DNA from: Escherichia coli
GTDB lineage: Bacteria > Pseudomonadota > Gammaproteobacteria > Enterobacterales > Enterobacteriaceae
Assembly: GCF_024700885.2 (NCBI RefSeq)
Contig: NZ_CP117016.1
DNA length: 64,000 nt
Reading direction: 5' to 3' (one strand)
Part shown: positions 14,419-32,045 of the stretch, piece after piece
Position numbering within the stretch: the stretch's first letter is position 1
Layout: each line of letters starts with the position of its first letter
The notes under the pieces: model-generated
What the model was told of the DNA's origin: nothing
Database searches by the model: none
The model's input: only the letters and a program-made list of their open reading frames with translations
Made by a program: the position numbers and the translations under genes

Positions 14419-15696
14419 ATGGCTGTGCTGATTTTTCTGGGCTGTCTGTTGGGTGGTATTGCTATCGGTTTGCCTATTGCCTGGGCACTTTTGTTGTGCG
14501 GGGCGGCGTTAATGTTCTGGCTGGATATGTTTGATGTCCAGATCATGGCACAAACGCTGGTGAACGGAGCCGACAGTTTCTCCCTGCTGGCGATACCGTT
14601 CTTTGTGCTGGCGGGTGAAATTATGAATGCGGGCGGCTTGTCGAAACGCATTGTTGACCTGCCGATGAAACTGGTGGGGCATAAACCTGGCGGGCTGGGC
14701 TACGTCGGCGTGCTGGCGGCTATGATTATGGCAAGCCTTTCCGGTTCTGCCGTTGCAGATACCGCCGCCGTCGCCGCGTTACTGGTGCCGATGATGCGCA
14801 GCGCTAACTACCCGGTCAACCGTGCTGCGGGGCTGATTGCCTCTGGCGGGATTATCGCGCCAATTATTCCTCCTTCCATTCCGTTTATTATCTTCGGCGT
14901 TTCCAGCGGATTATCCATCAGTAAGCTGTTTATGGCGGGCATTGCCCCTGGCATGATGATGGGTGCAACGCTGATGCTTACCTGGTGGTGGCAGGCCAGT
15001 CGCCTTAATTTACCCCGCCAGCAAAAAGCAACGATGCAGGAAATCTGGCACTCTTTTGTCTCCGGTATCTGGGCGCTGTTTCTTCCAGTCATCATTATTG
15101 GCGGGTTTCGCTCCGGTCTGTTTACCCCTACCGAAGCCGGGGCCGTTGCTGCTTTCTATGCGCTGTTTGTCGCCACAGTTATTTACCGTGAAATGACCTT
15201 CGCCACACTTTGGCATGTGCTCATTGGCGCAGCGAAAACGACCTCAGTGGTGATGTTTCTGGTGGCCTCGGCACAAGTTTCCGCCTGGCTGATCACCATT
15301 GCTGAACTGCCGATGATGGTTTCTGATTTACTGCAACCGCTGGTCGATTCACCGCGTCTGCTGTTTATCGTCATTATGGTGGCTATCCTGATTGTCGGCA
15401 TGGTCATGGATTTAACGCCGACGGTATTAATTCTTACCCCGGTATTAATGCCTTTAGTTAAAGAGGCAGGAATCGATCCGATTTATTTCGGTGTCATGTT
15501 TATCATTAACTGCTCAATCGGCTTAATTACACCGCCTATCGGTAATGTGCTTAACGTTATTTCAGGGGTGGCAAAACTCAAATTCGATGATGCAGTCAGA
15601 GGCGTTTTCCCTTACGTCCTGGTTTTATATTCATTATTAGTCGTATTTGTTTTTATTCCCGATCTCATCATCCTCCCTTTGAAATGGATTAATTAA
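14419..15696 (+). CDS. yiaN: TRAP transporter large permease
   Basis: 425-aa polytopic membrane protein (DctM-like). Confidence 0.9.
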   Translation: MAVLIFLGCLLGGIAIGLPIAWALLLCGAALMFWLDMFDVQIMAQTLVNGADSFSLLAIPFFVLAGEIMNAGGLSKRIVDLPMKLVGHKPGGLGYVGVLAAMIMASLSGSAVADTAAVAALLVPMMRSANYPVNRAAGLIASGGIIAPIIPPSIPFIIFGVSSGLSISKLFMAGIAPGMMMGATLMLTWWWQASRLNLPRQQKATMQEIWHSFVSGIWALFLPVIIIGGFRSGLFTPTEAGAVAAFYALFVATVIYREMTFATLWHVLIGAAKTTSVVMFLVASAQVSAWLITIAELPMMVSDLLQPLVDSPRLLFIVIMVAILIVGMVMDLTPTVLILTPVLMPLVKEAGIDPIYFGVMFIINCSIGLITPPIGNVLNVISGVAKLKFDDAVRGVFPYVLVLYSLLVVFVFIPDLIILPLKWIN

Positions 15697-15708
15697 AAGG
15701 AAAATATT

Positions 15709-16695
15709 ATGAAATTACGCTCTGTAACCTACGCATTATTCATTGCTGGCCTGGCTGCATTTAGTACATCTTCAATGGCGGCGCAGTCTTTACGTTTCGG
15801 TTATGAAACCTCACAAACCGACTCGCAACATATTGCGGCGAAAAAATTCAATGATTTATTGCAGGAGAGAACCAAAGGCGAGCTGAAATTAAAACTGTTC
15901 CCGGACAGCACTCTCGGTAACGCGCAGGCGATGATCAGCGGCGTACGTGGCGGCACCATCGATATGGAAATGTCCGGCTCGAATAACTTTGCCGGGTTAT
16001 CACCAGTGATGAACTTGCTTGATGTCCCTTTCCTGTTCCGCGATACCGCTCACGCGCATAAAACGCTCGACGGCAAAGTCGGTGATGATTTGAAAGCCTC
16101 ACTTGAAGGTAAAGGACTGAAAGTACTTGCCTACTGGGAAAACGGCTGGCGCGATGTCACCAACTCCCGCGCACCAGTTAAAACCCCCGCAGACCTGAAA
16201 GGGTTGAAAATCCGCACCAACAATAGCCCGATGAATATCGCCGCATTCAAAGTCTTTGGCGCTAACCCGATCCCGATGCCGTTTGCCGAAGTCTATACCG
16301 GGCTGGAAACGCGCACTATCGACGCTCAGGAACACCCGATCAACGTCGTCTGGTCAGCAAAATTTTTCGAAGTACAGAAGTACCTTTCTCTGACGCACCA
16401 CGCCTATTCGCCACTTCTGGTGGTGATCAACAAAGCGAAGTTTGACGGCTTAACCCCGGAGTTCCAGCAGGCGCTGATCTCATCTGCGCAGGAAGCGGGT
16501 AACTACCAGCGCAAACTGGTTGCCGAAGATCAGCAAAAAATCATCGACGGCATGAAAGAAGCGGGCGTGGAAGTCATCACCGATCTCGACCGCAAAGCCT
16601 TTAGCGACGCACTGGGGAATCAGGTTCGCGACATGTTTGTTAAAGATGTGCCGCAGGGAGCTGATCTGCTGAAAGCCGTGGATGAGGTGCAATAA
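15709..16695 (+). CDS. yiaO: TRAP transporter periplasmic solute-binding protein
   Basis: 328 aa with signal peptide; DctP-like. Confidence 0.9.
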   Translation: MKLRSVTYALFIAGLAAFSTSSMAAQSLRFGYETSQTDSQHIAAKKFNDLLQERTKGELKLKLFPDSTLGNAQAMISGVRGGTIDMEMSGSNNFAGLSPVMNLLDVPFLFRDTAHAHKTLDGKVGDDLKASLEGKGLKVLAYWENGWRDVTNSRAPVKTPADLKGLKIRTNNSPMNIAAFKVFGANPIPMPFAEVYTGLETRTIDAQEHPINVVWSAKFFEVQKYLSLTHHAYSPLLVVINKAKFDGLTPEFQQALISSAQEAGNYQRKLVAEDQQKIIDGMKEAGVEVITDLDRKAFSDALGNQVRDMFVKDVPQGADLLKAVDEVQ

Positions 16696-16698
16696 ACC

Positions 16699-18195
16699 AT
16701 GACGCAATACTGGCTGGGGTTAGATTGTGGCGGTAGCTGGCTGAAAGCCGGGCTGTATGACCGCGAAGGCCGGGAGGCAGGCGTGCAACGCCTGCCGCTG
16801 TGCACATTAAGCCCGCAGCCAGGCTGGGCAGAGCGCGATATGGCAGAACTGTGGCAATGCTGCATGGCTGTCATTCGCGCCCTGCTTACCCATTCCGGCG
16901 TTAGCGGGGAACAAATTGTCGGTATCGGCATCTCCGCACAGGGAAAGGGCTTGTTTTTGCTGGATAAAAACGACAAGCCGCTCGGTAACGCCATTTTGTC
17001 CTCGGATCGCCGGGCGATGGAAATCGTTCATCGCTGGCAGGAAGATGGCATCCCGGAAAAACTCTACCCGCTGACCCGACAAACCTTGTGGACCGGGCAT
17101 CCGGTGTCGCTGTTACGCTGGCTGAAAGAGCACGAACCGGAACGCTACGCGCAAATTGGCTGCGTGATGATGACGCACGACTACCTGCGCTGGTGTTTAA
17201 CCGGCGTCAAAGGTTGCGAAGAGAGCAATATTTCTGAGTCCAATCTCTACAACATGAGTCTTGGGGAATATGACCCGTGCCTCACCGACTGGCTTGGGAT
17301 CGCTGAAATCAACCACGCCCTGCCGCCTGTTGTCGGATCTGCCGAAATCTGCGGGGAGATCACCGCTCAGACAGCCGCACTGACCGGTCTGAAAGCGGGT
17401 ACGCCCGTTGTCGGCGGCCTGTTTGATGTGGTTTCCACCGCACTCTGTGCCGGGATCGAAGACGAATTTACCCTTAATGCGGTGATGGGCACCTGGGCGG
17501 TGACCAGCGGAATAACCCGTGGTTTACGTGACGGTGAAGCGCATCCGTATGTCTATGGTCGCTACGTTAACGATGGTCAATTTATCGTTCACGAAGCCAG
17601 CCCCACCTCTTCCGGCAACCTCGAATGGTTTACCGCACAGTGGGGAGAAATCTCGTTTGATGAGATTAACCAGGCCGTTGCCAGCTTGCCAAAGGCCGGG
17701 GGCGATCTCTTTTTCCTGCCGTTCCTGTACGGCAGCAACGCCGGACTCGAGATGACCAGCGGTTTCTACGGGATGCAGGCCATTCACACCCGCGCACACC
17801 TGTTGCAGGCCATTTATGAAGGGGTGGTATTCAGCCATATGACCCATCTCAACCGGATGCGCGAACGTTTTACTGATGTGCACACCCTGCGCGTCACTGG
17901 CGGCCCGGCGCATTCCGATGTCTGGATGCAAATGCTGGCGGACGTCAGCGGGCTGCGTATCGAACTGCCGCAGGTGGAAGAAACCGGCTGTTTTGGCGCG
18001 GCGCTTGCCGCCCGCGTCGGCACCGGGGTTTATCGCGATTTCAGCGAAGCCCAACGTGATTTACAGCACCCAGTACGCACCCTGCTGCCGGATATGACCG
18101 CACATCAGCTTTACCAACAAAAATACCAACGCTATCAGCATCTCATTGCCGCACTTCAGGGCTTTCACGCCCGCATCAAGGAGCACACATTATGA
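16699..18195 (+). CDS. lyxK: L-xylulose/3-keto-L-gulonate kinase
   Basis: 498 aa; FGGY sugar kinase; operon position. Confidence 0.9.
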   Translation: MTQYWLGLDCGGSWLKAGLYDREGREAGVQRLPLCTLSPQPGWAERDMAELWQCCMAVIRALLTHSGVSGEQIVGIGISAQGKGLFLLDKNDKPLGNAILSSDRRAMEIVHRWQEDGIPEKLYPLTRQTLWTGHPVSLLRWLKEHEPERYAQIGCVMMTHDYLRWCLTGVKGCEESNISESNLYNMSLGEYDPCLTDWLGIAEINHALPPVVGSAEICGEITAQTAALTGLKAGTPVVGGLFDVVSTALCAGIEDEFTLNAVMGTWAVTSGITRGLRDGEAHPYVYGRYVNDGQFIVHEASPTSSGNLEWFTAQWGEISFDEINQAVASLPKAGGDLFFLPFLYGSNAGLEMTSGFYGMQAIHTRAHLLQAIYEGVVFSHMTHLNRMRERFTDVHTLRVTGGPAHSDVWMQMLADVSGLRIELPQVEETGCFGAALAARVGTGVYRDFSEAQRDLQHPVRTLLPDMTAHQLYQQKYQRYQHLIAALQGFHARIKEHTL

Positions 18196-18854
18196 GCCGA
18201 CCACTTCTGCAACTGGCCCTCGACCACTCATCACTTGAAGCCGCGCAGCGCGACGTGATGCTGTTAAAAGACAGCGTCGATATCGTCGAAGCGGGCACTA
18301 TTCTCTGTTTAAACGAAGGGCTTGGCGCGGTGAAAGCCTTGCGCGAACAGTGCCCGGATAAAATCATCGTTGCCGACTGGAAGGTCGCCGACGCGGGTGA
18401 AACGCTCGTGCAACAGGCATTTGGCGCAGGCGCTAACTGGATGACCATCATCTGCGCCGCGCCGCTCGCGACGGTGGAAAAAGGCCACGCCATGGCGCAA
18501 CGCTGCGGTGGTGAAATTCAGATAGAACTGTTCGGCAACTGGACGCTGGACGACGCCCGCGACTGGCATCGTATTGGCGTGCGGCAGGCCATTTATCATC
18601 GCGGTCGTGACGCGCAAGCCAGCGGGCAACAGTGGTGCGAAGCCGATCTGGCACGTATGAAGGCGCTTTCCGATATCGGCCTTGAGCTTTCCATTACCGG
18701 CGGGATTACCCCTGCTGACCTGCCGCTGTTTAAAGATATCCGCGTGAAAGCGTTTATTGCCGGGCGGGCGCTGGCAGGCGCAGCAAATCCGGCGCAGGTG
18801 GCTGGCGATTTCCATGCGCAAATCGACGCTATCTGGGGAGGCGCGCGTGCGTAA
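18192..18854 (+). CDS. sgbH: 3-keto-L-gulonate-6-phosphate decarboxylase
   Basis: 220 aa; overlaps the lyxK stop. Confidence 0.9.
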
Positions 18855-19707
18855 TCATCCGTTAGGTATTTATGAAAAAGCGCTGGCGAAAGATCTCTCC
18901 TGGCCTGAGCGGCTGGTGCTGGCGAAAAGCTGCGGTTTTGATTTTGTCGAAATGTCGGTGGATGAAACCGACGAACGTTTGTCACGCCTTGACTGGAACG
19001 CCGCACAACGTGCTTCACTGGTCACTGCGATGATCGAAACGGGTGTTGCCATTCCGTCAATGTGCCTGTCCGCACATCGTCGCTTTCCCTTTGGCAGCCG
19101 GGACGAGGCGGTGCGCGAACGGGCGCGGAAAATCATGAGTAAAGCGATTCGCCTGGCGCGCGATCTCGGCATTCGCACCATTCAACTGGCGGGTTATGAC
19201 GTCTATTACGAAGACCACGACGAAGGCACCCGGCAACGTTTTGCTGAAGGGCTGGCGTGGGCGGTCGAACAGGCGGCGGCATCACAAGTAATGCTGGCGG
19301 TGGAGATTATGGATACCGCGTTTATGAACTCCATCAGCAAATGGAAAAAATGGGACGAGATGCTCGCCTCGCCGTGGTTCACCGTCTACCCGGACGTCGG
19401 CAACCTCAGCGCCTGGGGCAATGATGTTTCCGCCGAACTGAAACTGGGCATTGACCGTATTGCCGCAATCCACCTGAAAGACACCCGGCCAGTGACCGAG
19501 CAAAGCCCCGGACAGTTCCGTGATGTGCCGTTTGGCGAAGGCTGCGTCGATTTCGTTGGCATCTTCAAAACGCTGCATGAACTGAACTATCGCGGTTCTT
19601 TCCTGATTGAGATGTGGACCGAAAAAGCCAAAGAGCCGGTGCTGGAGATTATTCAGGCGCGGCGCTGGATTGAAGCGCGTATGCAGGAGGCTGGATTTAT
19701 ATGTTAG
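18847..19707 (+). CDS. sgbU: L-xylulose-5-phosphate 3-epimerase
   Basis: 286 aa from an in-frame GTG at 18847 ([15 protein letters not shown]…), 8 nt overlap with sgbH. Track start at 18757 rejected as an extension through sgbH. Confidence 0.85.
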
Positions 19708-20396
19708 AGCAACTGAAAGCCGACGTGCTGGCGGCAAATCTGGCACTTCCCGCTCACCATCTGGTGACGTTCACCTGGGGCAATGTCAGCGCGGTAGACG
19801 AAACGCGGCAATGGATGGTAATCAAACCTTCCGGCGTCGAGTACGACGTGATGACTGCCGACGATATGGTGGTGGTTGAGATAGCCAGCGGTAAGGGGGT
19901 GGAAGGCAGCAAAAAGCCCTCGTCCGACACGCCAACGCATCTGGCGCTCTACCGTCGCTATGCCGAAATCGGTGGCATTGTGCATACCCACTCGCGCCAC
20001 GCGACCATCTGGTCACAGGCCGGGCTGGATCTCCCCGCCTGGGGCACCACGCACGCCGATTACTTCTATGGAGCCATCCCCTGCACGCGCCTGATGACCG
20101 CAGAAGAGATCAACGGCGAGTATGAATACCAGACTGGCGAAGTGATCATTGAAACCCTCGAAGAACGCGGCAGGAGTCCAGCGCAAATCCCGGCGGTTCT
20201 GGTACATTCTCACGGCCCGTTCGCCTGGGGTAAAAACGCCGCCGATGCGGTGCATAATGCCGTAGTGCTGGAAGAGTGCGCCTATATGGGCCTGTTCTCG
20301 CGCCAGCTTGCGCCGCAACTCCCTGCGATGCAAAACGAACTGTTGGATAAGCACTACCTGCGTAAGCATGGGGCCAATGCCTATTACGGGCAGTAA
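19701..20396 (+). CDS. sgbE: L-ribulose-5-phosphate 4-epimerase
   Basis: 231 aa; class II aldolase/epimerase; overlaps the sgbU stop. Confidence 0.9.
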
Positions 20397-20427
20397 TCCC
20401 TCACGCCGGGGCTTCATTGCCCCGGCA

Positions 20428-21243
20428 CTACGAATTGATATGTTCCTTGCTGTAACGTCGCTTCCACGCAGCTGGCGTTAAACCGGTGTGTTTGCGAAAA
20501 ATCTGCCGGAAATAGCCAACGTCATTAAACCCACACAACGCCGCCACTTCCGTGAGCGATCGCGCTTCGCTAATTAACAGCTTTTCGGCTTCGCGCACTC
20601 GCTGGCGATGGATTGCTTCTGTTAACGTCAGATGAAACACCCGCCGATAGACGCGCCCAAGATAATCGGCATTGCAGTACAGCTCGCGGGCTAAAAGCGC
20701 CGTGGAAAGCGGGCGATGATATTGCGTGCGGATCAGTTTCTGCGCTTTCCAGGCAAGCGTGGTACCTGCGGCATCGGCCTGTTCATCAAGACGCGCGTCA
20801 CGGGTGAGTTGCTGCAAAATCAGCAGCACAATAAACTCCAGCGCCGGAGTGCGTTGATGCTTTTCCTGTTCGCTTAAGAACTGGCGAAACAGGGCCACCA
20901 GCGCCTGCGGATCGGCAACCTTCGTTTGTTGCGGCACGCTAAGATGAGTGAGCCAGCGCGGGTCGCTATCCGGCGCTTTAACCTCAAAATGCAGCCAGTA
21001 AAATTTGAGATCGGCGGGAAAATCCTCTACCCCAACATGCTGTCGGTTCGGCCAGAGTAATAAACTCTCTCCCGCATCGACCAGAAATATCCGCTCTTCT
21101 TCCTGAATCGTTAATCGACCTTTTTCGACAAAGATAATTTCCCATGACTCCAGCCGCCTTGCCGGATGCCTCCCTACGCCACGGGAAATAAATAATCCAC
21201 CATTTTGCACTTTAATCGGTAACGTCATGGATAATTCGAGCAT
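20428..21243 (-). CDS. AraC-family transcriptional regulator (accessory)
   Basis: 271 aa; C-terminal AraC HTH (…LTEVAALCGFNDVGYFRQIFRKHTGLTPAAWKRR); N-terminal cupin-like sugar-sensing half. True start may be Met 6. Confidence 0.8.
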   Translation of the reverse strand: MLELSMTLPIKVQNGGLFISRGVGRHPARRLESWEIIFVEKGRLTIQEEERIFLVDAGESLLLWPNRQHVGVEDFPADLKFYWLHFEVKAPDSDPRWLTHLSVPQQTKVADPQALVALFRQFLSEQEKHQRTPALEFIVLLILQQLTRDARLDEQADAAGTTLAWKAQKLIRTQYHRPLSTALLARELYCNADYLGRVYRRVFHLTLTEAIHRQRVREAEKLLISEARSLTEVAALCGFNDVGYFRQIFRKHTGLTPAAWKRRYSKEHINS

Positions 21244-21289
21244 TGATATGTAATTTCCCGCTTATTCATTAATGATTAAACACATTACC

Positions 21290-21308
21290 TTTTGATTATT
21301 AATCAAAA
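21290..21308. promoter_or_regulatory. Perfect 9-1-9 palindrome in the divergent AraC/transporter promoter region
   Basis: TTTTGATTA-T-TAATCAAAA read directly from the sequence; candidate operator. Confidence 0.3.
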
Positions 21309-21468
21309 ACATTAATTTCACCTGATCCATTTCACACTTTTAAATTCAGGTCGGAATCGTCACCTTTTTTTACTCTTTTCTCGCCTTGTTGATATTCCCG
21401 TTCACGGCAGAATTAATCATGTCATTGCAATAAAACTAAAAATTGCTCCCTATTCACGAGGAATATCT

Positions 21469-22869
21469 ATGACCTCTACACCGATTACTACCGCTGATAT
21501 CGCTAAAGGTAAAATTGACGATGCGTTATCTGTACGGGAAAAAATAGGCTACGGCCTGGGTGACGCAGGCGGCACCGTAATAACTTGCCTGATCATGAAC
21601 TTTCTCACCTTTTTCTACACCGACGTTTTTGGCTTAACTCCGGCGCTGGTCGGCACGCTGTTTATTGCACTGCGCGTGTTTGATGCCATCTCCGACCCGG
21701 TGATGGGCGTCATTGCCGACCGGACGCAAAGTCGCTGGGGGCGCTTTCGTCCGTGGCAGTTATGGATTGCCATTCCCATCGGCATTATCGGCATCCTGAC
21801 GTTCACCGTGCCAGATGCCAGCATGGGAGTAAAAATCGCCTGGGCGTTCGGCACTTACCTGCTCCTTTCAGTCGGTTATACCGCCATCAACGTGCCGTAC
21901 TGCGCGCTGATCAACACCATGACCACCCGCCACAATGAAGTGATCTCCTGCCAGTCCTGGCGATTCGTTCTCTGCGGCGTAGCGGGATTTCTGGTTTCGG
22001 TTGGCCTGCCGTGGATGGTGGATCTCTTCGGTCAGGGTAATGCCGCGCGCGGCTATCAACTGGGCGTCGGCGTATTGTGCGCCATCGCTGTGGTGATGTT
22101 CCTGTGCTGTTTCTTCTGGGTTCGTGAACGGGTACCACTCTCCACAATGGGGAAATTTACCCTGCGCGAACATCTTGCCGGGCTGCGAAACAACGACCAA
22201 CTGCTGCTGATGCTGGTCATGTCTTTCCTGCTGATTAACGTCTTTAACATTCGCGGCGGTGGGTATATGTACTTCATTACCTACGTCTTACAAGGCAGTA
22301 CGGGCTACACGTCGCTGTTCTTCACCATGGTCACCTTCGCCTCCATTATCGGCTCGGTGATTGTCAGCCCGTTAACGCGACGTTTCGATACCGTCAAAAT
22401 TTACTACTACACCAACCTGCTCCTCGCCGCGCTGGCGGTGTTGATGTGGTTCCTGCCTTCTGGCCCGGCTTATCAAACGCTGTGGCTGGCGGTGATCCTC
22501 GGTAATGGCGTGATTCTTGGCTTCACATTGCCATTGCACTTCTCATTGATGGCCTTTGCCGATGACTACGGCGAGTGGAAAACCCGCGTACGTTCTTCCG
22601 GCATGAACTTCGCCTTCAATCTGTTTTTCATCAAACTGGCCTGGGCCTCCAGCGCCGGGATCATCAGCCTGCTGTTTATTTTTGTCGCCTACCAGCCAGG
22701 CGTGGAAAACCAGACCACCAGTTCGCTTGGCGGGATCACGGCGATGGAAACATTACTGCCTGCGCTATTCCACCTGCTGCTGGCAGGGGCGATCCGCTTT
22801 TGCAAACTCAATAACCCTATGATGTCACGCATTGCTACCGACCTGCGTCAGCGTCATGTACAGCCTTAA
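21469..22869 (+). CDS. GPH-family (glycoside-pentoside-hexuronide) cation symporter
   Basis: 466-aa 12-TM-like protein with the GPH/MelB-like signature near the N-terminus (…GYGLGDAGG…[13 protein letters not shown]…). Confidence 0.8.
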
Positions 22870-22879
22870 GGAGCACAAG

Positions 22880-24844
22880 ATGAACATTTCGGAAGTCGAT
22901 CTGCATAAACTGACGGTCAGCGATCCGTTCCTCGGTCAGTACCAACAACTGGTCCGCGATGTGGTGATTCCTTATCAGTGGGACGCCTTGAACGATCGTA
23001 TCCCAGAAGCGGAACCCAGCCATGCGATTGAAAACTTTCGCATTGCCGCAGGACTGCAAGACGGTGAATTTTACGGGATGGTGTTTCAGGACAGCGACGT
23101 CGCCAAATGGCTGGAAGCGGTAGCCTGGTCGCTGTGCCAGAAGCCGGATGCCGAACTGGAAAAAACCGCTGACGAGGTAATCGAACTGGTCGCTTCCGCC
23201 CAGTGCGAAGATGGCTATCTCAATACTTACTTTACGGTAAAAGCGCCCGAAGAACGCTGGAGCAATCTGGCGGAGTGTCATGAACTTTACTGCGCCGGTC
23301 ATCTGATTGAAGCCGGAGTCGCCTTCTTCCAGGCCACGGGAAAACGGCGCTTGCTGGAAGTGGTTTGCCGTCTGGCCGATCATATCGACAGCGTATTTGG
23401 TCCAGGTGAAAGTAAGTTACACGGTTATCCTGGTCACCCGGAAATTGAACTGGCACTAATGCGCCTGTATGAAGTGACCGAAGAGCCGCGCTACCTGGCG
23501 CTGACAAACTATTTTGTCGAACAGCGTGGTGCGCAACCGCACTATTACGACCAGGAATATGAAAAGCGCGGGCAGACCTCGCACTGGCACACCTACGGCC
23601 CGGCGTGGATGGTGAAAGATAAAGCCTACAGCCAGGCGCATTTGCCCATCGCACAGCAACAAACCGCCATCGGACATGCAGTACGCTTTGTATATCTGAT
23701 GACTGGCGTCGCACATCTGGCGCGTTTAAGTCACGATGAAAGCAAGCGTCAGGACTGCCTGCGGCTGTGGAACAATATGGCCCAGCGTCAGTTATATATT
23801 ACCGGCGGCATTGGCTCACAAAGCAGCGGCGAAGCGTTCAGCAGCGATTACGATCTGCCGAATGACACGGTATACGCTGAAAGCTGCGCCTCCATCGGCC
23901 TGATGATGTTTGCCCGGCGAATGCTGGAAATGGAAGGCGACAGTCAATATGCCGATGTGATGGAGCGCGCGCTGTACAACACTGTGCTCGGCGGCATGGC
24001 ACTGGATGGCAAACATTTCTTCTATGTGAATCCGCTGGAAGTACATCCAAAATCGCTGAAATTCAACCATATCTACGATCACGTTAAGCCGATCCGCCAG
24101 CGTTGGTTTGGTTGCGCTTGTTGTCCGCCAAATATCGCCCGCGTGCTAACCTCGATTGGTCATTATCTCTACACGCCGCGTGAAGATGCGTTGTATATCA
24201 ACATCTACGCAGGAAACAGCATGGAAGTGCCGGTAGAAAATGGCACGCTGCGCCTGCGGGTTAGCGGAAACTATCCGTGGCAGGAGCAGGTGACGATTGC
24301 GGTTGAATCGCCCCAGCCGGTGCGTCATACGCTGGCTTTACGTCTGCCGGACTGGTGCACACAGCCGCAGATCATATTGAATGGGGAAGAGGTCGAGCAG
24401 GATATTCGTAAAGGGTATTTGCACATTACCCGCGAATGGCAGGAGGGCGATATGCTGAATCTGACTTTGCCGATGCCGGTACGCCGCGTTTACGGTAACC
24501 CGCTGGTGCGTCACGTCGCCGGAAAAGTGGCGATTCAGCGCGGCCCACTGGTGTATTGCCTGGAACACGCCGACAACGGCGAGTCACTGCATAACCTGTG
24601 GCTGCCCGCCGATGCGCCATTTACGACATTTGAAGGTAATGGATTGTTCCGCCATAAGATCTTAATCCAGGCTCCGGGTTACCGGTATGAACAGAGCAAT
24701 CCAGAGCAGCAACCGCTGTGGCATTACGACAGCGCGCCAGCCAAACGCCAGCCGCAAACCCTGACCTTTATCCCGTGGTTTAGCTGGGCCAACCGGGGTG
24801 AAGGCGAAATGCGGATCTGGGTGAATGAGGAAACCAGCGCATGA
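22880..24844 (+). CDS. Glycoside hydrolase family 127-like (DUF1680, beta-L-arabinofuranosidase-type)
   Basis: 654 aa from MNISEV with an aaggag RBS; Cys-rich motif FGCACCPPNIARV and the HELYCAGHLIE region are characteristic of GH127. Family assignment from memory. Confidence 0.75.
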   Translation: MNISEVDLHKLTVSDPFLGQYQQLVRDVVIPYQWDALNDRIPEAEPSHAIENFRIAAGLQDGEFYGMVFQDSDVAKWLEAVAWSLCQKPDAELEKTADEVIELVASAQCEDGYLNTYFTVKAPEERWSNLAECHELYCAGHLIEAGVAFFQATGKRRLLEVVCRLADHIDSVFGPGESKLHGYPGHPEIELALMRLYEVTEEPRYLALTNYFVEQRGAQPHYYDQEYEKRGQTSHWHTYGPAWMVKDKAYSQAHLPIAQQQTAIGHAVRFVYLMTGVAHLARLSHDESKRQDCLRLWNNMAQRQLYITGGIGSQSSGEAFSSDYDLPNDTVYAESCASIGLMMFARRMLEMEGDSQYADVMERALYNTVLGGMALDGKHFFYVNPLEVHPKSLKFNHIYDHVKPIRQRWFGCACCPPNIARVLTSIGHYLYTPREDALYINIYAGNSMEVPVENGTLRLRVSGNYPWQEQVTIAVESPQPVRHTLALRLPDWCTQPQIILNGEEVEQDIRKGYLHITREWQEGDMLNLTLPMPVRRVYGNPLVRHVAGKVAIQRGPLVYCLEHADNGESLHNLWLPADAPFTTFEGNGLFRHKILIQAPGYRYEQSNPEQQPLWHYDSAPAKRQPQTLTFIPWFSWANRGEGEMRIWVNEETSA

Positions 24845-24915
24845 TGCGACGCTTAACGCGTCTTATCAGTATCAACATATCGGTGCGGTTGCCCGCCAAC
24901 CATCGAAACGCGAGA

Positions 24916-25326
24916 TTAAACGCCCGGCAATACACGCCGGGCAGCTTCCGCCAGAAACGCACTTCTGTTGGCATAGTCTGGGTTATTGCGCACGTAGGTA
25001 TCAATCTTGTTCAGTAATCTTTTTGGCATCGTAATATTGATACGTTCAGCCCGACCTTCGAACTGATTCATATTGATATCCACCAGCAACCATTGCCCGC
25101 CAATAAAGTCCTGCGCACGCTGGACCAGATGTGTTTCCACAGAGCCTGGAAGCGGCAACTCTTCATTCATCTCGCATAAGGTTTCGAAGTGCGCGACCAG
25201 TGCACTTCGCGCATCCTGGAAAGCGTAGTCCAGCGTATCACCAGCAAAATAACAGCCTGGAACATCAGGGAAAAAACCGCTGGCGCTGCCGTCAGGATCA
25301 CTGTGGATATAGGCGGGATAAAACAT
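24916..25326 (-). CDS. hicB: HicB-family antitoxin
   Basis: 136 aa; HicB-like N-domain plus C-terminal ribbon-helix-helix-like segment (RINITMPKRLLNKID…RSAFLAEAARR); 16 bp after hicA. Confidence 0.7.
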   Translation of the reverse strand: MFYPAYIHSDPDGSASGFFPDVPGCYFAGDTLDYAFQDARSALVAHFETLCEMNEELPLPGSVETHLVQRAQDFIGGQWLLVDINMNQFEGRAERINITMPKRLLNKIDTYVRNNPDYANRSAFLAEAARRVLPGV

Positions 25327-25342
25327 ATTGCCTCCTGAAATT

Positions 25343-25528
25343 TTAAAATGTTAAACCAGCCTGACGCCCAATTTGCGCCAGCGTACCGGGCTTAATATCT
25401 TTTTTAGGGTGCGGAACCGTCACCAGACCCGGATGAACAGGGTGGCGGAACTGATGACGACTGCCACGGGTTCGAATATGTTCCCAGCCATGCTGCTTCA
25501 GGATGGCGATCACGTCTGCACTTTTCAC
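25343..25528 (-). CDS. hicA: HicA-family mRNA interferase toxin
   Basis: 61 aa; HicA/YcfA-like (…HGWEHIRTRGSRHQFRHPVHPGLVTVPHPKKDIKPGTLAQIGRQAGL). Confidence 0.7.
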   Translation of the reverse strand: MKSADVIAILKQHGWEHIRTRGSRHQFRHPVHPGLVTVPHPKKDIKPGTLAQIGRQAGLTF

Positions 25529-26000
25529 ATCCCTGCCCTTCCATGATTATACACACGATACACACACAATTAGCGATAACAATCACGATAGCGCGATTTA
25601 TATGGGCCGTCAGGGGGATAAAGTTGACTCAGGAATGCCGCTCGGAAGAAGAATAACGGTGTGCAGTAATTGGTAGAAAATATGCGAGGATGCTCGCAAT
25701 TTACATATAACTCATAGTATTAGGTGTTAAAAAATCTGTATTAGATTATCCATGCGATATCGAAGCTAGTCTTGCTATAGCTCCAACTCGTATTCATTGA
25801 ACGTTTAAAACAACCAATAAAAGACACTGTTTTATTTTCTTGATAAATATCAAGTTTGTTTCACCATTGTATTTACAATGTGCAAACATTATTTTTTGTG
25901 TGTTATACATTAACTATGACCAATGATAAAGCGTTAATATATAAATATTTTCTATATTTTTATCAAACGCATTTTTATTAAATATATATAAGGAGTTATA

Positions 26001-27080
26001 ATGTCTATGGAGTTTATAGATAAGCTGAATTCATTATCCGCAAAAATAAAACAACAAGCCGGAGTCATTGAAACGGAGGAAGCTACCAAAAATGCTTTCG
26101 TAATGCCGTTCATTAACAATGTGTTAGGTTATGATGTCTTTGATCCTACCGAAGTTATCCCAGAGTTTGTATGCGATATTGGAACGAAGAAAGGTGAAAG
26201 GATTGACTATGCAATCTTAAAAAATAGCGAGGTTCAGATTCTCATTGAATGCAAAAAAATTGGCGATCCTCTAAATATAAATCATGCTTCACAGCTTTTT
26301 CGATACTTTCATGTAACAAATGCAAGAATATCTATTCTAACCAATGGACAAGTTTATAAATTTTTTACTGATTTAGAAGCACCTAATAAAATGGATGAAA
26401 AACCATTTCTTGAGATAGATCTACTTGACTTAGACGAAACAGTTGTTCCCGAGATAAAGAAGCTTACTAAATCAGCATTTGATTTGGAATCAATAATTAA
26501 TGCTGCAGGTGAATTAAAATATGTTAGTTTAATTAAAAAAGTTCTCCATGCACAAATGAATAATCCTGAAGAGGATTTTGTAAAATTCTTTGCAGCAAGA
26601 ATTTATGAAGGTATGTTAACACAAAAGGTAAAAGATACGTTTGCAAAATTAACAAAGAAAGCTGCCAATCAATATATTAACTCTCAAATAAACGAAAGAT
26701 TGAAATCGGCAATAGGTGGTGGGTCATTATCTGTAATTGATTCGAATTCACACAATGAGGAAGTTGAATGTATTAATAAAGAAGAAACCGATATTGCCAC
26801 TACTATGGAGGAACTTGAAGGATTTCATATTGTTAAAGCTATAGTTCGCGTAGTGCTTGATGCACCACGAATAGTCCACAGAGATACAAAAAGCTATTTT
26901 GGTATACTTGTAGATGACAATAATCGAAAGCCACTCTGTAGATTACATTTCAATCGAAATCAAAAATATATTGGTTTATTTGACTTAGAGAAAAACGAAA
27001 CCCGCCATCCTATTGAATCTCTCGATGATATTTATTCTTTCAGCGATGAGTTGAAAGCGACTGCCGCTTTATACAACTAA
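26001..27080 (+). CDS. Orphan HsdR-N-like PD-(D/E)xK nuclease-domain protein (candidate defence gene)
   Basis: 359 aa; aaggag RBS 5 nt upstream; N-terminal region carries D69 (RIDYAIL) and E83-x-K85 (ILIECKK) in the arrangement of type I restriction enzyme R-subunit N-terminal domains. Strongly AT-rich gene and upstream region. C-terminal about 100 aa of unknown function. Confidence 0.7.
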   Translation: MSMEFIDKLNSLSAKIKQQAGVIETEEATKNAFVMPFINNVLGYDVFDPTEVIPEFVCDIGTKKGERIDYAILKNSEVQILIECKKIGDPLNINHASQLFRYFHVTNARISILTNGQVYKFFTDLEAPNKMDEKPFLEIDLLDLDETVVPEIKKLTKSAFDLESIINAAGELKYVSLIKKVLHAQMNNPEEDFVKFFAARIYEGMLTQKVKDTFAKLTKKAANQYINSQINERLKSAIGGGSLSVIDSNSHNEEVECINKEETDIATTMEELEGFHIVKAIVRVVLDAPRIVHRDTKSYFGILVDDNNRKPLCRLHFNRNQKYIGLFDLEKNETRHPIESLDDIYSFSDELKATAALYN

Positions 27081-27083
27081 AAC

Positions 27084-27116
27084 AAAGGCAGACAACTATT
27101 AACGTTGCCTGCCTTT
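27084..27116. terminator. Bidirectional hairpin terminator between the nuclease-like gene and aldB
   Basis: aaaggcagacaa…ttgcctgccttt inverted repeat in the 40-bp convergent spacer. Confidence 0.5.
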
Positions 27117-27120
27117 CACA

Positions 27121-28659
27121 TCAGAACAGCCCCAACGGTTTATCCGAGTAGCTCACCAGCAGGCACTTGGTTTGCTGGTAATGCTCAAGCATCATTTTGT
27201 GGGTTTCGCGGCCAATGCCTGATTGTTTGTAGCCACCAAACGCCGCATGTGCCGGGTAAGCGTGATAACAGTTGGTCCACACGCGCCCGGCCTGAATGCC
27301 GCGCCCCATCTTATAGGCCAGATTACCGTTGCGGCTCCAGACACCCGCGCCCAGGCCATATTTCGTGTCGTTCGCCAGCTCCAGCGCTTCTTCCATCGTT
27401 TTGAAGGTGGTCACCGCCAGCACCGGGCCAAAAATCTCCTCCTGGAACACGCGCATATTATTCTGACCAAACAGAATCGTCGGTTCGAGGTAGTAGCCGT
27501 CTTTCAGTTCGCCTTCCAGCAGCTTGCGCCGCCCGCCGGTGAGCACATCAGCGCCTTCTTTTTTACCGATATCAATGTAATTGAGGATGGTTTCCAGTTG
27601 CCCGTGCGAAACCTGCGCTCCCATTTGCGTCACGCTGTCGAGTGGGTTACCGCTACGAATGCTTTCGACACGGCGGATGGCGCGTTCCATAAAGCGTTCG
27701 TAGATAGACTCCTGTACTAAAGCACGGCTTGGACAGGTGCAAACTTCGCCCTGGTTAAAGGCAAACAGTGCAAAGCCTTCCAGCGCTTTATCGAAAAAGG
27801 CATCTTCTTCATCCATCACATCAGCAAAGAAGATATTTGGCGATTTGCCGCCCAGCTCCAGGGTTACCGGAATAATGTTTTGCGTAGCGTATTGCATAAT
27901 TTGTTGGCCCACTTCCGTTGAGCCGGTAAACGCCACTTTAGCGATGCGTTTCGAGGTCGCCAGATATTCGCCAATTTCCCCACCTGCACCGTTGACCACG
28001 TTCACCACGCCTGGCGGCAGTAAATCACCGACGATTTCCATTAGCAGCAGTACAGAAAGCGGGGTAAGACGTGCGGGTTTCAGCACCACACAGTTGCCCG
28101 CCGCCAGCGCGGGGGCCATTTTCCAGCTCGCCATCAGCAGCGGGAAGTTCCACGGAATAATCTGCCCCACCACGCCTAACGGTTCGTGGAAGTGATAAGC
28201 CACGGTTTCGCTATCCACTTCACTAATACCGCCTTCCTGCGCCCGAATACACGAGGCGAAATAGCGGAAATGGTCAATCGCCAGCGGCACATCGGCAGCA
28301 CTGGTTTCGCGAATGGGTTTGCCGTTATCCCAGGTTTCAGCGGTCGCTAACAGTTCGAGGTTCTGCTCCATCCGATCGGCGATCTTAAACAGAATCGCCG
28401 CGCGCTCCTGCACCGAAGTATGCGCCCATTTATCTTTCACTTTGTGCGCAGCATCCAGCGCCAGATCGATGTCTCGTTTGCCCGAAGACGCCACTTCGCA
28501 CAGCAGCTGCCCGGTCACCGGCGTCAGGTTCTGGTAATACTCGCCGTCGGCAGGGGCTACCCACTCGCCGCCGATAAAGTTGTCATAACGGGCTTTTAAC
28601 TTAAGAGGAAAACCATACTCGCCGGGCTTAATCTGTGCTGAAGGGGGATTATTGGTCAT
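27121..28659 (-). CDS. aldB: Aldehyde dehydrogenase B
   Basis: 512 aa from [17 protein letters not shown]…; ALDH catalytic motifs (…ELGGKSP…, …[12 protein letters not shown]…). Track ORF has a 30-codon upstream extension, rejected. Confidence 0.9.
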
Positions 28660-28784
28660 GATCGTCTCCTTGCGGTGTGAGGTATAACAAGGGTAGACGT
28701 GGCTGGCGAAATCTTCGCCAACTGGTGATAGCTTTACGACGGCTATCACGAATTTACGGGCAAGGATTACAGAGATAACTAAAA

Positions 28785-28844
28785 CTCTCTCAAAAATCGC
28801 AAATTTTGAGAGAGTTTAAAAAATGGCTGACAATTAGCCAGCCA
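28785..28844 (-). terminator. Tandem hairpins downstream of yiaY
   Basis: ctctctcaaaa…ttttgagagag and tggctg…cagcca inverted repeats between the yiaY stop and the aldB start. Confidence 0.4.
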
Positions 28845-28859
28845 TTGGGGGAATGATGA

Positions 28860-30011
28860 TTACATCGCAGCGCGATAAATCGCCACAATTTCTTCGTGAG
28901 TTGCCTGAATCGGGTTAGTAAACCCACACGCATCTTTCAGGGCATTGGTGGCCAGTACCGCGAAATCCTCTTCTTTCACGTTCAGGTCACGCAGGCCTGC
29001 CGGGATATTCACTTTCTTCGCCAGTTCACGGATGGCATTGATGCACGCTTCTGCGCCTTCCGCGTCATTTTTGCCTGTCACGTTCACGCCCATAGCAGCA
29101 GCACAGTCACGCAGACGCGCAGCGGCGACTTTGCTGTTGAATACCTGAACATGCGGCAGCAGAACGGCGTTACATACACCGTGCGGCAGATTGTAGAAAC
29201 CGCCCAGCTGGTGCGCCATCGCATGAACATAACCCAGAGAAGCGTTGTTGAATGCCATGCCAGCGAGGAACTGGGCATAAGCCATTGCTTCACGCGCTTT
29301 AGCATTGCTGCCATTTTCAACGGCTAACGGCAGGTTTTCGGCAATCATGGTCACCGCTTTCAATGCACAAGCGTCAGTGATCGGCGTGGCAGCAATAGAA
29401 ACATACGCTTCGATAGCGTGCGTTAAGGCATCCATACCCGTTGCGGCGGTCAGTGACTGCGGCATACCAATCATCAGAGAGGAGTCATTGACAGAAAGCA
29501 ACGGAGTGACATGTTTATCAACAATCGCCATTTTGATATGACGCGCTTCGTCAGTGATGATGCAGAAACGGGTCATTTCAGAGGCCGTACCCGCCGTGGT
29601 GTTGATGGCGATCATCGGCAGCTGCGGTTTTGCAGAGCGGTCAACGCCTTCGTAATCGCGAATATCGCCGCCATTGGCTGCCACCAGCGCAATACCTTTT
29701 GCGCAGTCGTGCGGAGAACCACCGCCTAAGGAGATCACGCTATCGCAATTATTTTCTTTAAGTAATTTCAAACCTGCAGCGACGTTTTCCGTGGTGGGGT
29801 TAGGTTGGGTGCCATCATAAATAACGCTAAAAATATTGCGTTCTTCCAGTGCTTTTTGCACATCACCCGCCATACCCAATTTCGTTAACATATTGTCAGT
29901 GACAATTAAGGTACGGGTAAATCCATAATCTGCCATCATATTCATTGCATCATTCAATGAATCAGCACCAATAACATTCACGGAAGGAATAAAAAAGGTT
30001 GAAGCTGCCAT
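28860..30011 (-). CDS. yiaY: Iron-containing alcohol dehydrogenase
   Basis: 383 aa; Fe-ADH family (GGGSPHD-type motif present as …[12 protein letters not shown]…). Confidence 0.9.
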
Positions 30012-30109
30012 AACACACTCCTGAAAGTGTAAAAAAGGGCGGGCAGCTTACTGAGGATTTTCATTCGAAAATATGATCAGTATTATTGTTTATCAAAATT
30101 AATCTAATA

Positions 30110-30147
30110 AAAAGCACATTGTATTCATTAAACAATGTGCTTTTTTT
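30110..30147. terminator. Rho-independent terminator downstream of selB (bidirectional form)
   Basis: aaaagcacattgt-attcattaa-acaatgtgcttttttt: 9-bp stem flanked by A and T runs. Confidence 0.55.
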
Positions 30148-30200
30148 AAATTCATAAGAATTTTGTATTAATTTATTTTAAAACTTAATTAATCATTTCC

Positions 30201-32045
30201 TTATTTTTCCGGAAATAATAATGCGTCGCGCAATAAATGATCATTTCCCCGACGACGCGTAAAACCAATGCGGTCAAAATATTCCAGAATTTGAATTGCC
30301 AGTTTTCGACCAACACCTAAACGATCGCGGAAATCCGCCGCGCAGGTTGAACCACATTCCTGATCGAGATCGCGGATCATATTGGCAAATTCGACAATCC
30401 GATCGTTACGGTAATAACGATCTTTAACGATCGCCGTAATTATCCCCTGCTGGGCCGCCTGGCGTAGAGTCAGGCGCATTGCCTGCTCGTCGGTTCCCGT
30501 CTCTTTTGCCAGGTCTCGCACCCACCACGGTTCGTCACCAAACAGCGGCTCTGCTTTTTGCCAGATGGCCTGCTGCTCTTCGCTGAAGCCCGCTTTGTGA
30601 TCCGGCAGATGCAGCCAGCCGTGATGACTGAGGATGTCGCCGCTTTCGCGCATCTTTTCAATCAGCAACAGTACCAGCGCTTCATCTTCCATTGGCAACG
30701 CCATACGTCGCAGACGTTCGCGCCCAGGACCAGGTTCATCGCGATGTTGCTCATGATAAGTCGCTAATGTGTCGAGAATTTTCCGCTGCCAGCGAGCGGC
30801 AACCGGCGCATTCAACAAGCTATAACCAGCCTGAATATAGCCAGGCTGTTGCAGCAGTTCGCGCATCCCTTCGCCGTTGAGCTGCCGTGCCCAGGCGAAA
30901 TCCGCAAGGTTAACCGCTCCGCGTTCCAGATGAACAGATAACGCATCGGCATCGCTCTGCGCCCGTGCAAGAGACGCCAGCCATTGCAGATATTCCGGCT
31001 TACGCTTACCGCGACGCGGCGGGTTAAGCATCACCACACGCGCCCCCGCCAGCGTGTTGCGGGCCGAGATATCGCGCAGCACTAAGCGATCGTTATCCGC
31101 CAGCCACAGCGGCGTGTCGAACACCAGCTCGGCAAGGTTATCTTCCAGCAGCGAAACGCGTCCCGTAACGTGGCTGGCGGCGTGGTGAATATGCAGCGGC
31201 TGCCACTGGGTCAGCGGTGTATGGGTTTGAAGCTCGACAATCACCCGTGTGAACGGCTCCGGCGGCGCATCGGCAAGCAGCCAGTCGCCACGGTTAATCT
31301 GCTCTTTTTCCGCATCACCCGCGATGTTAAGCGCGATACGCTGCCCGGCATGGGCAGTTTCTGTTGGCTGATTTTGCGCATGTAGCGCACGCACGCGCAT
31401 CGGTTTATTTACACCAGTCAGCCAGAGTGAATCGCCTACCTTCACTTCCCCGCTTAACGCCGTACCGGTGACGACCAGCCCGGCACCTTTTACGGTAAAT
31501 GCACGGTCGATCGCGAGGCGGAAACTATGTTGGCTGGCGTGTTCGCGTTCTGGTAACTGAAGCAGATGCTCGCGCAGGGCATCAATTCCCCGACCTTCGG
31601 TTGCTGCGGTGATAAACAGTTTTGCCTCAGCAAAACCGTATTCCCGTAGCACCTCCTTTACCTGGCGTTCAACCTCATCAACACGCGCTTCGTCCACGCG
31701 ATCGGCTTTGGTCAGCGCCACTGTCAGCATCGGATTACCGGTCAGCTGCAAAATCGCCAGATGCTCACGGGTCTGTGCCATCACGCCGTCATCGCACGCC
31801 ACCACCAACAGCGCGTGATCGATACCACCAACGCCCGCCAGCATGTTGGAAAGAAACTTTTCATGACCGGGTACGTCGATAAAACCAGGCACGCGACCAT
31901 CCGGCTGCGGCCAGTAGGCATAGCCGAGATCGATAGTCATGCCGCGCTTTTTTTCTTCCGGCAGACGATCGGCATTTACGCCAGTAATCGCCTGCAATAA
32001 GGTTGTTTTGCCGTGGTCAACGTGTCCGGCAGTCGCAATAATCAT
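30201..32045 (-). CDS. selB: Selenocysteine-specific elongation factor
   Basis: 614 aa; N-terminal GTPase ([18 protein letters not shown]); overlaps selA by 4 nt. Confidence 0.95.

Follow-up and report, generated by a model that had tools for sequence, protein, structure and literature searches.

The genes sgbE and aldB of Escherichia coli enclose an interval whose content differs from strain to strain, and the question raised by this locus is whether that content was brought in as an island or is what remains of a longer row of genes. The window analysed here is a stretch of 64,000 nucleotides of E. coli DNA, in which positions 20397-27120 are exactly the gap from the sgbE stop codon to the aldB stop codon. 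An AraC-family regulator, a glycoside-pentoside-hexuronide (GPH) symporter, a GH127-like enzyme, the hicBA pair and a nuclease-like gene were all located in this gap (Table 1), as a first-pass annotation had listed them, and over 9 kb the window is 100% identical to E. coli strain elppa4, the RefSeq annotation of that strain being consistent with the gene calls. The first-pass annotation had taken the interval for a replacement island. We consider it highly probable that it is instead the remnant of an old array of the Enterobacteriaceae, and that the alleles now seen are deletion derivatives of this array, shuffled by homologous recombination. The GH127 module, hicBA and the nuclease are three independent functional units of the interval, and no description of the locus was found in the literature that was searched.

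Allele classes and deletion scars in E. coli

A census of 5,426 complete E. coli genomes was made with module- and junction-specific queries, the modules being counted at a coverage of at least 80%; these replaced a single 9-kb query, which gave coarse coverage classes only. The GH127 module (window 20532-24552) was found in 2,313 genomes, yiaTUVW in 3,724, hicBA in 505, with one chromosomal copy in every case, and the nuclease cassette (25702-27117) in 188 (3.5%). As for the junctions, that of the K-12-type deletion occurred in 2,460 genomes, GH127 directly adjoined aldB in 569, sgbE and aldB met in an "empty" junction in 481, and yiaW adjoined intact hicBA in 16. By subtraction, about 301 genomes carry hicBA with neither the nuclease nor yiaTUVW, and about 1,245 carry GH127 and yiaTUVW with only a scar of hicB, a number on which two independent estimates, 1,239 and 1,248, agree. 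That is to say, there are at least seven allele classes (188, ~301, 16, ~1,245, 569, 2,460 and 481 genomes), which cover about 97% of the census, and the remaining 3% or so include IS1-mediated deletions. Two IS1-associated deletions were seen in single strains (L008 5475-8001 and L089 6344-7041), one of which spans yiaL to within aldB, while the other takes the 3′ part of the nuclease gene, aldB and yiaY.

Among the loci compared, L001 is of the window type, L002 has hicBA only (with neither yiaTUVW nor the nuclease), L004 has GH127 only, L003 and L007 have GH127 with yiaTUVW, L005 is K-12-like, L006 is empty, and L101 and L102 are near-full. The last two, which were inspected out of the 16 genomes with yiaW next to intact hicBA, have the order sgbE-AraC-MFS-GH127-yiaTUVW-ORF-hicBA-aldB, where ORF is a small open reading frame of 104 amino acids. 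In every allele class sgbE is the left neighbour of the variable interval, except in the O157 type, from which yiaK-sgbE is deleted; in the O157-like L007 (FORC_044) a yiaJ remnant directly abuts the AraC-type regulator (L007 2868-3010).

The interval was rightly described beforehand as strain-variable, since the window arrangement with the nuclease is that of 188 genomes and the K-12 arrangement that of 2,460, and the same content in K-12 and in most genomes, which would make it core, was not seen in the census. It was also rightly stated that K-12 carries yiaT-yiaU-yiaV-yiaW at this position, as is seen in MG1655. The genome-panel comparison proposed at the same time does define allele classes and junctions, yet the content sets prove to coexist, so that "different cargo" is not supported as a description of alternatives: GH127 and yiaTUVW stand together in about 1,245 genomes, yiaTUVW and intact hicBA in 16, and even in K-12 parts of the AraC, GH127 and hicB genes survive.

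If the interval were a replacement island, a horizontally acquired sugar module and an AT-rich hicAB/nuclease half would have displaced yiaTUVW at a recombination hotspot. This agrees with a window that lacks yiaTUVW, a K-12 that lacks the window genes and an interval that varies across strains, but it is contradicted by the coexistence of the GH127 module with yiaTUVW, both in those E. coli genomes and in Citrobacter, and by the K-12 remnants, and we regard it as very improbable. The appearance of a replacement arose because K-12 was the only strain compared; comparing one strain with K-12 makes reciprocal deletions resemble an island swap.

Base composition had seemed to favour an island too, the nuclease segment having a GC content of 33% as against about 54% in its neighbours. 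The gene-level GC is 0.525 for the AraC regulator, 0.544 for the symporter, 0.546 for GH127, 0.504 for hicB, 0.527 for hicA, 0.324 for the hicA-nuclease spacer and 0.331 for the nuclease. Of the two compositional halves proposed earlier, the GC-typical sugar module and the AT-rich spacer and nuclease are therefore real, but hicB (0.50) and hicA (0.53) do not belong to the AT-rich one: in the GC profile hicAB lie near the AraC value, and the atypical composition is confined to 25529-27080 (~1.55 kb, spacer plus nuclease gene, 0.32-0.33), the remaining ~5.1 kb being at 0.50-0.55 at gene level. Low GC alone is a poor sign of recent import, and the nuclease orthologue is just as AT-rich (0.33-0.35) in every genus examined, five in all, which speaks against the island once more. 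Further short AT-rich stretches occur in the yiaY-selB intergenic region (window 29800-30200, GC ~0.32-0.35) and in the divergent promoter region between the AraC and symporter genes (window 21000-21600, GC ~0.38-0.40).

Nor were signs of mobility found, as had been noticed from the start. No integrase, recombinase or transposase gene inside the interval or at its borders appears in the ORF list or among the genes annotated by RefSeq in the identical strain; there is no tRNA or tmRNA gene in 15000-33000 and no Rfam RNA at the interval, and no flanking direct repeats or target-site duplications at the borders, where only short pairs at chance level occur. The lack of mobility genes and border repeats is explained as well if the apparent exchange of cargo resulted from reciprocal deletions from one larger ancestral array.

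The deletions themselves have left scars. K-12-type genomes lack 4,021 bp of the window sequence, and on the two sides of the blunt junction they keep the 3′ 102 bp of the AraC gene, which is the pseudogene ysaC (b4648 in MG1655), and a decayed 3′ fragment of the GH127 gene (24553-24742, 88.9% identity), which is the pseudogene ysaD (b4649). K-12-type and type C genomes have a third scar, located between yiaW and aldB, which corresponds to the 3′ end of hicB (24887-24999: the last 28 codons and 29 bp downstream). It is kept in all yiaTUVW-bearing E. coli genomes examined, at about 82% identity and with an 11-bp deletion; in MG1655 it is unannotated (NC_000913.3:3754721-3754822, L103 8722-8823) and 81.6% identical over 114 bp. 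In other K-12-type genomes RefSeq annotates a truncated ORF of 47 amino acids beside the hicB remnant as a "hypothetical protein".

Even the "empty" allele retains 24 nt, GCCCGGCAATACACGCCGGGCAGC, which are the last codons of hicB (about 24923-24946). They encode the peptide AARRVLPG; since HicB orthologues from other genera (76-86% identity) conserve this peptide, the 24-nt hairpin is a genuine piece of hicB. That it might be the ancestral terminator of aldB, an idea prompted by a similar GCCCGG...CCGGGC hairpin after aldB in Citrobacter, was rejected on the ground of this conservation. The 46-bp spacer between sgbE and aldB is identical in the type strain of E. albertii (L022 3030-3081) and in E. 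coli (L006 2397-2442), the flanks of the two being 92.9% identical, and the empty alleles of both species share with the window the aldB-proximal CCTTTCACATCA variant. The allele common to E. coli and E. albertii goes back either to an old deletion that has persisted across the two species or to introgression long ago.

In the window the scar is of another kind. By comparison with the near-full allele, 3,824 bp (yiaT-yiaU-yiaV-yiaW and the 104-aa ORF) are replaced by a 22-bp filler; the place of yiaTUVW is thus between GH127 and hicB, from 24868 to 24891. The left breakpoint is exactly at the end of a partial repetitive extragenic palindromic (REP) element, and a matching REP stands downstream of GH127 in L101 and in L003. 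One and the same filler is present in the window and in L002, an indication that the hicBA alleles with and without the nuclease have a single deletion event in common. The hicBA deletion filler, the type D allele and the nuclease-less allele likewise have REPs at their breakpoints. Recombination between REPs as the general mechanism of deletion is thus supported only in part, the 4-kb K-12 deletion being blunt and free of repeats, and illegitimate recombination with some REP involvement, rather than a single mechanism, is suggested.

Exchange between the alleles is indicated by two observations besides the identical spacer of E. coli and E. albertii between diverged flanks. All four combinations of yiaTUVW and the nuclease are seen with identical junctions, namely both in cryptic Escherichia (L100), yiaTUVW alone in L101, the nuclease alone in the window and neither in L002, a four-gamete pattern which indicates recombination between alleles. 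The same is indicated by L004 and L006, whose sgbE and aldB are 99.2-99.3% identical, yet L004 keeps GH127 and L006 has only the hicB scar.

The course of events may then be proposed as follows. The ancestor of Escherichia would have had the array sgbE-AraC-GPH symporter-GH127-yiaT-yiaU-yiaV-yiaW-(104-aa ORF)-hicB-hicA-nuclease-aldB. From this array the window allele would have arisen by a loss of 3.8 kb, yiaTUVW and the small ORF, with the left breakpoint at the REP and the 22-bp filler left behind; K-12 would have lost the AraC-GH127 segment (4,021 bp, blunt) together with most of hicBA and the nuclease; and other lineages would have lost more, down to the 24 nt of hicB in the empty allele. 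Homologous recombination in the conserved flanks would afterwards have carried the alleles from one lineage to another, without any need for mobility genes.

The same genes in related genera

About 12 useful loci among the AldB-scan matches listed, with further ones from exact-protein look-ups, give the contexts outside E. coli. In Citrobacter sp. FP75 (L009) and C. werkmanii (L023) the order is aldB-yiaW-V-U-T-GH127-MFS-AraC(-sgbE-sgbU), and C. freundii (L093) has the Citrobacter array with a nuclease orthologue (82% amino acid identity) between yiaW and aldB. Enterobacter cloacae (L010), Pseudescherichia (L012) and Kluyvera (L013) have aldB-GH127-MFS-AraC, and Leclercia (L011) has aldB-yiaU-yiaT-GH127-MFS-AraC. 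The order is sgbE-AraC-MFS-GH127-nuclease-hicB-hicA-yiaT-yiaU-aldB in an Enterobacter sp. (L094), ysaA-nuclease-yiaT-yiaU-aldB in E. asburiae (L090-92), AraC-MFS-GH127-nuclease-(104-aa ORF)-aldB in Superficieibacter (L106), nuclease-aldB in Salmonella (L104) and aldB-hicA-hicB in a second Pseudescherichia locus (L097). Cryptic Escherichia L100 has aldB-nuclease-hicA(frameshifted)-hicB-ORF-yiaW-V-U-T and is collinear with window 24887-28700 at 93.6% identity. In Citrobacter, Enterobacter, Leclercia, Kluyvera, Pseudescherichia and Superficieibacter, then, the GH127 module keeps both its position and its gene order, and the nuclease orthologue adjoins aldB in C. freundii, Salmonella and cryptic Escherichia, lies one small ORF away from it in Superficieibacter and belongs to the same neighbourhood in Enterobacter.

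Every gene once regarded as cargo is therefore syntenic in other genera, and with the sugar module and the nuclease at home there and the scars in K-12, the description as a replacement island is not supported. The amino acid identity of the nuclease to the window protein is 82% in Citrobacter and 78% in Enterobacter, the corresponding values being 87% and 81% for GH127 and 84% and 71% for YiaU, with 78% for HicB; on these sequence comparisons, the divergence of the nuclease is in line with that of the neighbouring genes and does not look like that of a recent import.

A paralogous copy of yiaW-yiaV, yibI-yibH, with about 70% DNA identity, lies on the other side of selAB (L101 1134-2635; Citrobacter L009 3057-4549) and occurs also in Leclercia, Kluyvera and Enterobacter; ectopic recombination could use this copy as a substrate. 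In L100 (12363-16411), yiaT is followed by sodA, kdgT, yiiM and cpxA and not by GH127 and sgbE, which implies a large rearrangement with a breakpoint at the locus.

Several points weigh against descent of the whole array by differential loss. The complete array that it supposes is in no single sampled genome: L100 has the right part, with the left part rearranged (yiaT beside sodA), and E. coli L101 lacks the nuclease. In Enterobacter the nuclease and hicBA stand between GH127 and yiaT and not beside aldB, which requires at least one rearrangement or re-insertion. The Citrobacter loci L009 and L023 lack both hicBA and the nuclease, and ancestral presence of these genes thus needs several independent losses. 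Finally, the nuclease of the window shares 95.5-98.5% DNA identity with that of the cryptic clade, as against 88.5-94% in the flanks, and of 191 carriers within E. coli, 181 have it at 99% identity or more; it is possible that this similarity reflects a fairly recent transfer of the nuclease within Escherichia.

Some of these points would be explained if only the GH127 module and yiaTUVW were ancestral and the nuclease, possibly with hicBA, were a mobile gene of defence type that entered the 3′ flank of aldB repeatedly, its patchiness being the result of gains. The nuclease is indeed patchy (in E. coli 188 genomes of the 5,426 have it, and the two Citrobacter loci just named do not), its GC is atypical, its full-length match to PHROG 4225 means that it has relatives in phages, its similarity between E. 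coli and the cryptic clade exceeds that of the flanks, and its position relative to hicBA and yiaT is another one in Enterobacter. However, E. coli, cryptic Escherichia, C. freundii and Salmonella all have it in the same slot, within 35-40 bp of the aldB stop codon, its amino acid divergence scales with the distance between genera as in the neighbouring genes, the cassette of E. coli and that of the cryptic clade have identical boundaries, and neither mobility genes nor target-site duplications accompany it. Moreover, the aldB-proximal variant in the empty allele of E. coli and E. albertii is otherwise seen with the terminator of the nuclease, which suggests that this allele derives from a nuclease-bearing ancestor. 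Repeated gain of the nuclease is accordingly judged improbable, and differential loss from an array that included it is the reading retained here.

Features of the interval and predicted functions

Table 1. Coordinates of the features in and around the sgbE-aldB interval (window positions)
Feature	Position	Strand	Remarks
sgbE (PGAP name araD), L-ribulose-5-phosphate 4-epimerase	19701..20396	+	conserved left flank; WP_000893130.1
sgbE/AraC convergent spacer, 31 bp	20397..20427		hairpin GCCGGGGC...GCCCCGGC; conserved in K-12-type genomes
AraC-family regulator, 271 aa	20428-21243	-	AraC-family profile matches
Segment deleted in K-12-type genomes, 4,021 bp	20532..24552		blunt junction ...CATTAAACC|GTATTGC..., no microhomology
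GPH/MFS cation symporter, 466 aa	21469-22869	+	TIGR00792
GH127 beta-L-arabinofuranosidase homologue, 654 aa	22880-24844	+	PDB homology and motifs
Partial REP element overlapping the GH127 stop codon	24839..24868		its end (...GCGTCTTATCA|) is exactly the left breakpoint of the yiaTUVW deletion
22-bp filler	24869..24890		replaces 3,824 bp of the near-full allele; junction comparison
hicB, predicted antitoxin, 136 aa	24916-25326	-	HicB fold and C-terminal ribbon-helix-helix
hicA, predicted toxin, 61 aa	25343-25528	-	GTG start; PDB 4C26
hicA-nuclease divergent spacer	25529..26000		GC 0.32; cassette boundary inside at 25701/25702
Nuclease cassette, 1,416 bp	25702..27117		nuclease-less alleles have a 101-bp REP-containing sequence instead
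Predicted PD-(D/E)XK nuclease, 359 aa	26001-27080	+	HsdR-N-terminal-type domain, helical middle, C-terminal alpha/beta domain; PGAP "type I restriction endonuclease"
Nuclease/aldB shared convergent terminator hairpin	27081..27120		GGCAGACAAC...GTTGCCTGCC
aldB, aldehyde dehydrogenase	27121..28659	-	conserved right flank

The 31-bp spacer between sgbE and the AraC gene differs by 1 nt in the K-12-like L005 and is otherwise identical. Beyond the right flank, a Fic-family gene (431 aa) between aldB and yiaY forms a second presence/absence polymorphism next door: it is present in many E. coli (L003, L004, L006, L007), in E. albertii L022 and in cryptic Escherichia L100 (comparison loci L003 12472-13705 and L007 13053-14348), and absent from the window (aldB-yiaY intergenic region 28660-28859), L002, L005 and K-12.

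The first of the three units is the sugar module. Its regulator has orthologues of 68-77% amino acid identity at this position in Citrobacter, Enterobacter, Kluyvera and further genera; the symporter passes the curated cutoff of TIGR00792 (331.7 bits as against 231.35), and its orthologues are syntenic in six other genera at 87-91% amino acid identity. The GH127 protein is homologous over its full length (residues 11-650) to PDB 4QJY, a beta-L-arabinofuranosidase of Geobacillus (E = 2e-235), and to HypBA1 (3WKW, 2e-151), and it lies under the NCBIfam cutoff for aceric acid hydrolase (455 as against 950 bits). Its translation holds the motifs AESCA and CACCPPN, of which ESC and CACCPPN presumably correspond to the Zn/Cys catalytic site of HypBA1. 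Judged by these homologies, the function most likely to be predicted for regulator, symporter and GH127 together is the import and cleavage of beta-L-arabinofuranosides. An apparently intact module of this predicted kind is present in 43% of E. coli genomes and not in K-12, and its presence may bear on the use of plant glycans in the gut. In strain BRG214 (L004 4880-6849), the representative of the class in which GH127 adjoins aldB, the GH127 gene is frameshifted, so the module may be decaying in that lineage.

The second unit, hicBA, is predicted to be a HicAB type II toxin-antitoxin pair. hicA stands upstream of hicB on the same strand with a gap of 16 bp, which is the adjacent-pair arrangement of such systems. 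HicA matches PDB 4C26 (HicA, 8.6e-17) and PHROG 353 "toxin" (1.9e-19), and its Enterobacter orthologue carries PF07927; HicB matches PDB 6G1N (1e-24) and 4P78 (5e-21), and PF15919 is precomputed for proteins 99% identical to it. The ribbon-helix-helix-like C-terminus of HicB, RSAFLAEAARRVL, is conserved in the orthologues, and both proteins match PHROG families, of toxins and of antitoxins respectively; a search of NCBIfam gave nothing for either. The hicAB pair of K-12 is at a different locus.

The third unit is the nuclease; the cassette that carries it begins and ends alike in the window and in cryptic Escherichia L100. Only HSDR_N and HSDR_N_2 of Pfam match it, over residues 27-129. The restriction-endonuclease-like fold and the D...(D/E)-x-K motif, by which the PD-(D/E)XK superfamily is defined, are both present: in 76 diverse homologues E55, D69 and E83 are invariant and K85 nearly so. 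The AlphaFold model (predicted local distance difference test score 92.3) comprises the PD-(D/E)XK domain (1-155), a helical part (162-238), a disordered linker and a C-terminal alpha/beta domain (269-358), and no RecA-like or SF2 motor domains are in it. There are no hsdM or hsdS neighbours, since the gene lies between hicA and aldB in the window, and none stand beside the inspected orthologues of other genera. Because it has neither a motor domain nor an hsdMS partner, the protein is not a type I restriction enzyme, and the RefSeq/PGAP name "type I restriction endonuclease" is a misleading over-annotation for a protein of 359 amino acids.

The family to which the nuclease belongs is large, with 5,310 representative clusters at E<=1e-3, all of about 350-370 aa and aligned from end to end, and PHROG 4225 "endonuclease" matches it over the full length. 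PADLOC gave only a weak partial match to the N-terminus of a type IIG restriction endonuclease-methyltransferase (5.9e-7, residues 50-208) and to the candidate PDC-S26 (0.004). Nothing was found in NCBIfam, nothing meaningful in a PDB sequence search with the family profile, and the best Foldseek match in the PDB was only at E ~0.01. The protein is predicted to be a PD-(D/E)XK endonuclease that stands alone and belongs to an uncharacterised family; that it serves in defence is a reasonable guess. A more far-reaching speculation, which we hold to be rather doubtful, is that the family is a single-gene anti-phage or anti-plasmid nuclease, with a C-terminal domain that perhaps binds nucleic acid, which would have kept to the aldB slot, in many cases with hicAB as a neighbour, from a time before the split of Escherichia, Citrobacter, Enterobacter and Salmonella at about 33% GC, its 3.5% retention in E. 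coli being due to balancing selection. If this were true, staying in one chromosomal slot would be unusual for a defence gene. The uncharacterised nuclease family is the sole item at the locus that may merit follow-up.

Comparison with known systems

The GH127 enzyme of the window resembles HypBA1 of Bifidobacterium longum (3WKW) and the Geobacillus enzyme (4QJY) in full-length homology and in the motifs; it differs from them in belonging to an orthologue set of the Enterobacteriaceae, within an operon with an AraC regulator and a GPH symporter, and its substrate is only predicted. With HicAB of Burkholderia pseudomallei (6G26/4C26) and HicA3B3 of Yersinia pestis (4P78), hicBA shares the gene order, the small HicA and the HicB fold with a ribbon-helix-helix, whereas it is a chromosomal resident that keeps the same neighbourhood in Escherichia, Enterobacter and Pseudescherichia. 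What the nuclease has in common with HsdR and with the type IIG/IIL nuclease domains (3H1T, 2W00, BpuSI 3S1S, DrdV 7LO5) is the HSDR_N and HSDR_N_2 Pfam matches; unlike them, it has only 359 aa, without motor, methyltransferase or hsdM/hsdS, and has a C-terminal alpha/beta domain of its own.

With a classical genomic island or integration hotspot, the interval shares strain-variable content between conserved genes and one segment of atypical GC, but it has no integrase, tRNA, direct repeats or transposase. Nor is its content absent from the same position in relatives, as that of an island is expected to be: it is found there in Citrobacter, Enterobacter, Salmonella, Superficieibacter, Pseudescherichia and cryptic Escherichia, and this synteny argues that, unlike an island, it was inherited vertically.

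The variation between sgbE and aldB is thus of an ordinary and known kind, differential gene loss, and the history of the locus changes no general concept. Its closest counterpart is the variable region by differential loss already represented by ysaC/ysaD of K-12, with which it shares conserved flanks, contents that alternate between strains, pseudogene remnants, the lack of mobility genes and recombinational exchange. Beyond this precedent, the interval adds an unannotated scar of hicB in K-12 and one deletion scar that is common to E. coli and E. albertii.

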